Shown: positions 1,101 to 1,816 of the stretch, piece after piece
How positions within the stretch are numbered: the stretch's first letter is position 1
Layout of the letters: every line of letters starts with the position of its first letter
IMG/VR virus record: IMGVR_UViG_2548876958_000008
Direction: 5' to 3' (one strand)
Source of the DNA: a virus
Lineage: Duplodnaviria > Heunggongvirae > Uroviricota > Caudoviricetes
Length of the DNA stretch: 5,235 bases
Position numbers and translations under genes: made by a program
The notes under the pieces: generated by a model
Databases searched by the model: none
What the model was told of the DNA's origin: nothing
What the model saw: only the letters and a program-made list of their open reading frames with translations

Positions 1101-1670
1101 ATGAATATGATGGCCGTGCCGTTTCACGGCAACTCTCTTTATGTAGTTAACCATAATGGCGAACCATACGTTCCCATGAAACCTGTCGTTGCGGGGATGG
1201 GGCTGGCCTGGCAATCACAGTTGGCTAAGTTAAGACAGCGTTTTGCGTCAACTATAACGGAAATCGTTATGGTTGCTGAGGATGGGAAACAACGCAATAT
1301 GGTGTCCATGCCACTTCGAAAACTTGCCGGCTGGCTACAAACCATTAATCCCAACAAAGTAAAACCCGAAATCCGCGATAAGGTCATCCGGTATCAGGAA
1401 GAGTGCGACGATGTTCTTTACGAGTACTGGACGAAGGGTTTTGTCGTTAATCCCCGTAAAATGAGCGTGATGGAAGAACTCAACCAGGCTTGTGCTGACA
1501 TGAAACGGGATAAAAACATTGCCAGTGTGTTTGCTACCGGGCTGAATGAGTGGAAACAGGTTAAAGCCGCGCATGTATCAAAAATCCGTACGCTGGTAAA
1601 TGAAGCGAATATGCTGATTGATTTTGTCCTGGCTGATACAGGCAAAGGGAAAATAACAAAGGCGGATTGA
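1101..1670 (+). CDS. Antirepressor-like protein (AntA/Bro-N-type N-terminal domain) inserted between endolysin and spanin genes
   Basis: 189-aa ORF with AAGGAA ribosome-binding site about 8 nt upstream of ATG 1101. The N-terminal region (FHGNSLYVVNHNGEPYVPMKPVVAGMGLAWQSQ) resembles phage antirepressor N-terminal domains as I recall them, and antirepressor-like genes are found between R and Rz in some enterobacterial lambdoid prophages. Family assignment is from memory, not a search. Confidence 0.55.
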   Translation: MNMMAVPFHGNSLYVVNHNGEPYVPMKPVVAGMGLAWQSQLAKLRQRFASTITEIVMVAEDGKQRNMVSMPLRKLAGWLQTINPNKVKPEIRDKVIRYQEECDDVLYEYWTKGFVVNPRKMSVMEELNQACADMKRDKNIASVFATGLNEWKQVKAAHVSKIRTLVNEANMLIDFVLADTGKGKITKAD

Positions 1671-1816
1671 TGGGGTGGCTAATGATATCAGATAAACTCA
1701 TAACGCTGGTGAAGAGCCTCTGTGTACTTGTCGGCATTTCATTTTTAGTCATGCTGGTTGCCATTTTCTTTTCCACCGCCTGGCGAGTCCTGACGTTATC
1801 GGGACTGGTGGGGTGA
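1670..1816 (+). CDS. Small single-TMD membrane peptide (48 aa from ATG 1670, or 44 aa from ATG 1682); not in the ORF track; candidate lysis-associated small membrane protein
   Basis: ATG 1670-1672 overlaps the ant stop (TGATG arrangement); in-frame second ATG at 1682. Translation: [48 protein letters not shown], with one ~22-residue hydrophobic helix. Stop TGA at 1814-1816 lies 7 nt before the Rz ATG, so it exactly fills the ant-to-Rz gap on the same strand. No homolog recognised. Confidence 0.4.

Follow-up and report, generated by a model that had tools for sequence, protein, structure and literature searches.

This study examined a short open reading frame (ORF) at positions 1670-1816 of a 5,235-nt stretch of viral DNA (IMG/VR record IMGVR_UViG_2548876958_000008), which is referred to in its full length as the window. 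The window was found to be the late region of an Escherichia coli lambdoid prophage of the Shiga toxin (Stx)-phage type, and its positions 1-5181 are matched by O157:H7 chromosomes with 99.9% identity. It contains, in order, the end of a YdfR/DUF1327 gene, the endolysin gene R, an ant-like gene, the small ORF and the spanin genes Rz and Rz1, followed by a 74-aa ORF, an HNH endonuclease gene, terS and an interrupted terL. As proposed in the initial annotation of this DNA, the small ORF is the gene of a small membrane protein, tightly packed between ant and Rz inside the lysis cassette.

With regard to its boundaries, the ATG at 1670-1672 and the ant stop codon, TGA at 1668-1670, have one base (A) in common, and a spacer of 7 nt (1817-1823) separates the stop of the small ORF from the Rz ATG at 1824. 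The Shine-Dalgarno region of Rz (about 1806-1822) lies partly within the 3' end of the small ORF. Translation would yield 49 aa from TTG 1667, 48 aa from ATG 1670 and 44 aa from ATG 1682. The overlap with ant, the distance to Rz and the product lengths of 44-48 aa were thus all as initially described; the ORF was also said to fill exactly a 147-bp gap, and it is indeed 147 nt long, but the gap between ant and Rz is 153 nt. Similar packing was observed downstream in other alleles, in which the peptide stop and the start of the next gene overlap or are 4-7 nt apart, and in which the Rz start overlaps or abuts the peptide stop.

ATG 1682 is located one codon 5' of the start used in homologues that lack ant, whose 43-aa products begin with M-S-D-K-L-I and whose start is preceded by its own Shine-Dalgarno sequence. 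The Shine-Dalgarno sequence of ATG 1682 is stronger than that of ATG 1670 (-9.5 versus -7.1 kcal/mol), its equivalents in other ant-linked alleles score -9.0 to -11.2, and a Shine-Dalgarno-like sequence precedes the start in every allele. The N-terminal extension MGWL, MEWWL or MERWL is confined to alleles fused to the 3' side of the ant stop; its net charge is not positive in MGWL and MERWL and is negative in MEWWL, and it has no unpaired basic residue. Judging from these signals, both ATG 1670 and ATG 1682 may be in use. The coupling to ant that was originally emphasised turned out to be incidental, given the M-S-D-K start and separate Shine-Dalgarno sequence of the homologues without ant.

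A frame of 49 codons would be open by chance in about 10% of cases, so that its length alone is weak evidence for a gene. Across 11 alleles of 75-100% nucleotide identity, the frame is kept with zero frame-breaking indels, and it is intact in all 98 of the 98 loci examined. The ORF is therefore conserved between ant and Rz in related prophages, where the initial annotation had suggested looking. The numbers of variable sites at the three codon positions (22, 16 and 29) were not decisive, and a frame-specific comparison was required. For all pairs of the first nine alleles, the ratio of the proportions of non-synonymous and synonymous differences (pN/pS) was 0.43 in the ORF frame, compared with values of 1.01 and 1.42 for the two shifted sense frames. 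In five phylogenetically independent allele pairs, 39 of 80 differences were synonymous, versus 27% expected (binomial p = 2e-5; pN/pS 0.38), and the shifted sense frames of these pairs showed no synonymous excess (p = 0.18 and 0.68). Between two alleles from cassettes with an M15 endolysin (L012 and L014), 12 synonymous and 2 non-synonymous changes were counted. Taken together, conservation and substitution pattern identify the sense ORF as a genuine gene, with purifying selection of moderate strength.

It is very improbable that the interval is non-functional as a peptide gene, being either a leader or spacer of Rz whose frame is kept by linkage, or the template of an antisense coding frame. 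The ORF is short, and a few truncated or frameshifted copies occur in the large protein database, as is expected of decaying prophages. Moreover, none of the 11 alleles has a stop in the antisense frame offset by one, which also shows a synonymous excess (pN/pS 0.49, p = 0.002). The sense-frame signal is nevertheless stronger (p = 2e-5) and is accompanied by conserved start and stop positions and Shine-Dalgarno sequences. The antisense frame uses the same third codon (wobble) positions as the sense frame, and its lack of stops follows trivially from the NTN form of the hydrophobic codons of the transmembrane domain (TMD). From stop to stop it measures anywhere between 58 and 180 aa, with boundaries that are not conserved, and antisense coding was rejected on these grounds. 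An untranslated Rz leader was likewise rejected: the interval has no Rfam match at E <= 1, and its RNA fold z-score of -1.1 is nothing unusual.

Coordinates of the small ORF, of its neighbours in the window and of related features in other loci.
Feature	Locus	Positions	Strand	Remark
YdfR/DUF1327, C-terminal 81 codons	window	1-246	+	hydrophilic gene between the upstream-of-window holin S and R
R endolysin (Phage_lysozyme)	window	297-830	+	weakly hydrophobic N-terminal SAR-type (signal-anchor-release) segment; PMC8136144
ant-like gene, P22_AR_N + ORF11CD3 domains	window	1101-1670	+	stop TGA 1668-1670
Small ORF, 48 aa	window	1670-1816	+	from ATG 1670; stop TGA 1814-1816
44-aa conserved core (MISDKLI...)	window	1682-1816	+	from ATG 1682
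Shine-Dalgarno-like AAGGCGG for ATG 1670	window	1659-1665	+	within ant 3' end; -7.1 kcal/mol duplex with 16S 3' end
Shine-Dalgarno-like GGGGTGG for ATG 1682	window	1672-1678	+	-9.5 kcal/mol
Transmembrane-helix codons	window	1715-1783	+	residues 12-34 of the 44-aa form; C14, G18, S20, F21, M24, W34 invariant
Rz i-spanin (PF03245)	window	1824-2291	+	directly downstream of small ORF
Rz1 o-spanin lipoprotein (PF06085)	window	2044-2250	+	inside Rz, +1 frame
Conserved leader	window	975-1100		before P22_AR_N ant
Conserved leader	L008/L007	2140-2296		before Rha
Conserved leader	L005	2060-2216		before 231-aa ANT protein
~60-aa lipoprotein (PHROG 7528)	L012	1625-1822		
~60-aa lipoprotein (PHROG 7528)	L014	1649-1831		
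~60-aa lipoprotein (PHROG 7528)	L101	4141-4322		
~60-aa lipoprotein (PHROG 7528)	L103 (P27)	2495-2683		
Micro-peptide gene	L003	2804-2986		
Micro-peptide genes	L004	612-824, 961-1077, 1002-1175		
Micro-peptide gene	L005	2866-3003		
Micro-peptide gene	L014	1309-1491		
Micro-peptide gene	L101	3906-3998		

The peptide exhibits a single TMD at residues 12-34 of the 44-aa form, as located with the best 19-23-residue windows. Its mean Kyte-Doolittle hydropathy is 2.3-2.8 and its summed apparent free energy is -1.5 to -3.3 kcal/mol; it is more hydrophobic than the TMD of Rz and far more so than the SAR segment of R. AlphaFold2, run on a 16-sequence alignment, returned one helix (residues 2-43) with a mean pLDDT of 87. 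Hydropathy, apparent free energy and the structural model thus bear out the single transmembrane helix that had been noticed at the outset. A table in the supplement of PMC4765031 also lists the protein EDL933_1392 as predicted "inner membrane" (LocTree) with one TMD. Thirteen positions are invariant across alleles, including C14, G18, S20, F21, M24 and W34. The C-terminal tail comprises 10 residues with no more than a single charge, which many alleles lack. Because two lysines are located on the N-terminal side and the arginine on the C-terminal side is missing in many alleles, the orientation is predicted to be N-in/C-out.

The 48-aa protein is 100% identical to RefSeq WP_000539792.1 (annotated by PGAP), to ORF50 of phage BP-4795 (CAD88851.1) and to EDL933_1392, and is described as a "hypothetical protein". 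The same gene is annotated at the same place in PPyecE_EH1910 (PPyecE_EH1910_370) and in O157 strains, and the interval carries no annotation in the 933W record AF125520 and several others. The peptide matches PHROG 4906, a family of unknown function, over its full length (residues 1-48 against positions 2-49 of the 49-position profile, E = 5.4e-30), and the 43- and 44-aa variants match it as well (E = 2e-23 and 2e-19). No match to a Pfam, NCBIfam or PADLOC (defence-system) family was found for the peptide. The gene is therefore already known, as an uncharacterised member of the PHROG 4906 family. The earlier statement that it is absent from the ORF track holds for the track available at the time and for the 933W record, but not for public annotations at large. 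In the literature searched, its sole trace is one row of a prediction table (PMC4765031), and it is not discussed in Stx-phage genomics papers or spanin surveys.

The DNA of the peptide was found in 264-282 phage records and at 414 IMG/VR loci; of 5426 complete E. coli genomes, 1749 carry it, at a total of 4654 places. Among the GTDB species representatives (185,579 genomes) there was a single match, on a 328-nt contig. A profile search of 1.8 billion representative proteins recovered 29 clusters only, mostly fragments. PHROG 4906 is thus confined almost entirely to lambdoid prophages of E. coli and Shigella. The 328-nt contig (L017, NZ_JPLE01000251.1) belongs to a Xanthomonas pisi assembly and encodes a peptide that is 93% identical; it is most likely E. 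coli or phage contamination of that assembly.

The initial annotation had combined the SAR endolysin with the apparent lack of a holin, and had proposed the peptide as a candidate holin, antiholin or lysis-timing factor. The gene just before R does encode a hydrophilic protein, as was stated, and this protein is YdfR/DUF1327, whose gene has been inserted between those of S and R. Relatives that share 99.9% identity with the window have the gene order S - YdfR/DUF1327 - R - ant - peptide - Rz, and following them upstream of position 1, as had been advised, revealed a conventional holin. This S protein, encoded two genes 5' of R, is a 71-aa class II holin of the phage-21 S family (PF04971, E = 1.4e-32). 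A tally of 98 sequences showed a holin in every locus whose architecture reaches upstream of the endolysin. The cassette is an ordinary phage-21-type S / SAR-R / Rz-Rz1 system into which cargo has been inserted, and its holin appeared to be missing only because the window starts downstream of it.

That the peptide is the functional holin or pinholin of the cassette is, as a consequence, largely refuted and scarcely credible. In favour of this idea, the peptide is small and membrane-bound by prediction, the window shows no holin for the lysis cassette that encodes it, and it has the minimum of one transmembrane domain that is expected of a holin. A canonical PF04971 holin is, however, located upstream in all relatives with enough flank, so the cassette has a hole-former other than the peptide. 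The peptide has one TMD only, and its uncharged or nearly uncharged tail is not the highly charged hydrophilic C-terminal domain of holins. It matches no holin family in Pfam, NCBIfam or the "lysis" category of PHROG, and its gene is distal to the endolysin.

The genomic contexts of the peptide gene are mosaic. The order S>(DUF1327)>R>ant>peptide>Rz was observed in 67 loci with the holin in view. Other orders are R>phrog_1115>peptide>Rz, R>ANT231>phrog_6632>peptide>Rz, M15>phrog_1115>peptide>lipoprotein and GH108 endolysin>ANT>peptide>lipoprotein. In PhiR12_1, vB_EcoS-569R3, Stx1a_NIID112183 and many chromosomes, the peptide is not located behind ant; its predecessor is then a 60-aa transmembrane peptide (PHROG 1115), a PHROG 6632 peptide or a 231-aa ANT-type protein. 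The gene is found behind M15 metallopeptidase endolysins, alongside two other holin genes, and behind GH108 endolysins, with Phage_holin_8 and Phage_holin_3_7, so that the endolysins it accompanies are of three unrelated types and the holins of two sets. Its position is nevertheless nearly constant: in 97 of 103 loci, it follows the endolysin and directly precedes Rz/Rz1 or a gene for a lipoprotein of about 60 aa. The exceptions are L004 and L013, in which other small ORFs separate it from Rz, together with L017, L087, L101/L102 and L103. The peptide gene is thus an independently mobile mosaic cistron, and the endolysin-spanin junction is clearly an insertion hot spot, with ant, Rha, ANT and at least three micro-peptide families.

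Other single-TMD micro-peptides (PHROG 1115, 4493/3246 and 6632, all of "unknown function") occupy the interval between endolysin and spanin in related prophages, and two or three of their genes are often stacked beside the PHROG 4906 gene. Paralogy of the peptide with the PHROG 1115 and 4493 micro-peptides was unsupported (hhalign probability 1.2%). With regard to the P27-type cassettes with M15 or GH108 endolysins, no recognisable Rz/Rz1 was seen, and the lipoprotein of about 60 aa (PHROG 7528) occupies the spanin position. This protein has the lipobox LLAGC or LLVGC and gives weak spanin-like matches (E about 0.02-0.07). An obligate spanin-like pair of the peptide and PHROG 7528 was considered and rejected, as P27 has no peptide and the combined periplasmic length would be far too short.

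Comparison with known lysis proteins reveals several partial resemblances. The phage 21 S protein (S21-68/71, PF04971) is likewise a small inner-membrane protein of the same cassette type, with in-frame alternative starts. In contrast to the peptide, with its one TMD and no charged tail, this pinholin has two TMDs, of which TMD1 is the SAR domain, and a charged C-terminus. The peptide has no PF04971 match, and the true PF04971 gene is located upstream as a separate gene. The antiholins lambda S107 and S21-71 are longer products of the holin gene with an additional N-terminal positive charge, whereas the peptide is encoded by a separate gene and has no such charge. The T4 antiholin RI combines a SAR/TMD anchor with a holin-binding periplasmic domain, whereas only about 10 residues follow the TMD in the peptide. 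The adjacent Rz i-spanin (PF03245) shares with the peptide an N-terminal TMD, N-in/C-out in Rz and predicted to be so in the peptide, and is probably translationally coupled to it. The periplasmic domain of i-spanins is about 100 aa or more and typically forms a coiled coil, and the two-component spanin complex spans the periplasm (PMC6139136). The peptide has no such domain beyond its 10-residue tail, and no PF03245 match.

The closest parallels in architecture are accessory factors with one TMD. The Mu gp25 releasin (DUF2730) is a single-TMD lysis accessory encoded a few genes downstream of a SAR endolysin (PMC9239132). It differs from the peptide in its length (99 aa versus 44-48 aa), in its N-out/C-in orientation, which is opposite to that predicted here, and in its acidic cytoplasmic domain of 73 aa, where the peptide has no soluble domain. 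The peptide has no match to DUF2730 or any other Pfam family even at E <= 10 and, unlike gp25, it is also found with non-SAR endolysins. Lcc6 of the Shewanella prophage LambdaSo is a small single-TMD factor that is needed along with the pinholin, SAR endolysin and spanins (bioRxiv 10.1101/2024.01.23.576932). Compared by its published description only, it differs in its 43-aa cytoplasmic tail, in the location of its gene far from the lysis genes, and in being essential for lysis. Type I toxin-like systems combine a small toxic membrane peptide with its own promoter and a controlling cis-antisense RNA; the scan of 780-2400 returned no promoter-like site on the + strand, and the interval has no Rfam match. 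The peptide lacks the features that define holins, pinholins, RI-type and dual-start antiholins, releasins and i-spanins.

Given these observations, we propose that 1670-1816, a genuine protein-coding cistron of the late operon, may encode an accessory inner-membrane micro-protein that modulates the membrane steps of lysis. We assign this reading a probability of roughly 0.5, and its lysis part a chance of about one in three. The peptide would be made late, from the Q-antiterminated transcript, since no promoter-like site is present on the + strand between R and Rz; the scan of 780-2400 for sigma-70-like promoters returned a single site, which is located at 2350-2323 of the - strand, some 500 nt 3' of the ORF. 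Ribosomes leaving ant could reinitiate at ATG 1670, or translation could begin at ATG 1682, whose Shine-Dalgarno sequence is conserved and the better of the two, and the peptide would insert N-in/C-out into the inner membrane. There, the conserved face formed by C14, G18, S20/F21, M24 and W34 could mediate helix-helix contacts, either with the peptide itself or with another TMD. As the phage partners vary and the host does not, one particular lysis protein of the phage is a less likely target than a host inner-membrane component, a generic membrane property or the peptide itself. The peptide would then be a dispensable accessory that fine-tunes the timing or efficiency of lysis, and not itself a holin, an endolysin or a spanin.

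Several observations weigh against this reading. The constraint is no more than moderate (dN/dS about 0.35-0.4), and one allele pair (L008 versus L098) shows pN > pS. The positive-inside rule is the sole basis of the predicted topology. Many functional lambdoid cassettes, among them those of lambda, phage 21, GER2 and CP-1639, have Rz but no peptide, and that of phage P27 has the lipoprotein without it; the peptide must therefore be dispensable for lysis. Searches of the literature by sequence, accession and PHROG identifier found no mention of it in main texts. Moreover, ant and YdfR share the interval yet are not lysis genes, and position alone is no proof of a role in lysis.

This last point leads to the main rival, namely that the peptide is a moron-type membrane protein unrelated to lysis, acting for instance in superinfection exclusion or on a host inner-membrane protein, and located by mere residence at the endolysin-spanin junction, which is prone to recombination. 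We regard this as somewhat unlikely, albeit a serious alternative. It would account for the clearly non-lytic cargo and the several unrelated transmembrane micro-peptide families of the same interval, for the presence of the peptide irrespective of holin, endolysin and spanin type, and for its dispensability, and the E. coli-restricted distribution would fit a host-specific target. Against it, no promoter-like site of its own was found on the + strand in the range scanned. The gene is located on the late strand, packed with an overlap or a few nucleotides against a gene for outer-membrane disruption, and the peptide has no PADLOC match. Less credible still is a dedicated regulator of the pinholin and SAR endolysin, which would target S or the SAR domain of R as a TMD-only antiholin, a holin trigger or a releasin-like factor. 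The majority of occurrences are indeed in cassettes with phage-21-type S and SAR-R, the two in-frame starts four codons apart recall dual-start motifs, and Mu gp25 and LambdaSo Lcc6 offer precedents. Such specificity is difficult to reconcile with the occurrence of the peptide alongside cytoplasmic M15 and GH108 endolysins and the Phage_holin_8 and Phage_holin_3_7 holins. Furthermore, the MGWL, MEWWL or MERWL extension has no unpaired basic residue comparable to the extra lysine of S107 or S21-71, no DUF2730 or holin profile is matched, and the peptide has no soluble domain.

A bolder version of the accessory reading, which we consider unlikely, is that PHROG 4906 represents a stand-alone, TMD-only micro-protein of lysis timing that works with unrelated holins, endolysins and spanins. 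If so, it would act through a host inner-membrane component or membrane energetics, as a portable, E. coli-specific "lysis clock modifier", and could influence the lysis timing of Stx phages and hence toxin release. The gene is very common in prophages of pathogenic E. coli. About one in three complete E. coli genomes carries it, often as multiple copies, as do most Stx-converting phages, in which lysis timing governs the release of both phage and Shiga toxin. Should the peptide modulate lysis, it would constitute a new and very small class of lysis accessory. The chief value of the present check is negative, in that the cassette is a standard one and the ORF is already publicly annotated.

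A leader of about 150 nt is strongly conserved just 5' of three unrelated antirepressor-type genes. In addition to its copy before the P22_AR_N ant gene of the window, it was found before Rha, downstream of Rz, in L007 and L008, and before the 231-aa ANT protein in L005. Its core reads GAACCTTTCAGGATGA...TCTGTGGGCTGG...CAAGGTTCATCACTAAAAGGA, and it holds a 39-codon ORF (950-1069) and a terminator-like hairpin (1024-1043), with no Rfam match. This leader could be a shared regulatory or mobility element of the inserted genes.

Further downstream, the 74-aa ORF (2315-2539) matches only positions 100-172 of the 291-position PHROG 2571 profile and may be the remnant of a longer gene. An AT-rich island at 2750-3080 contains a 46-aa ORF (2896-3036) with hydrophobic segments, which is annotated as "hypothetical" by PGAP in relatives and has no PHROG or Pfam match; a YlcI/YnfO-family gene is located at 3166-3351 on the opposite strand. 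Finally, terL is broken at 5181, the position at which the relatives stop matching, and the last 54 nt of the window (5182-5235) are the terminal repeat of an IS3-family element. As this element interrupts terL, the prophage of the source genome is probably packaging-defective.

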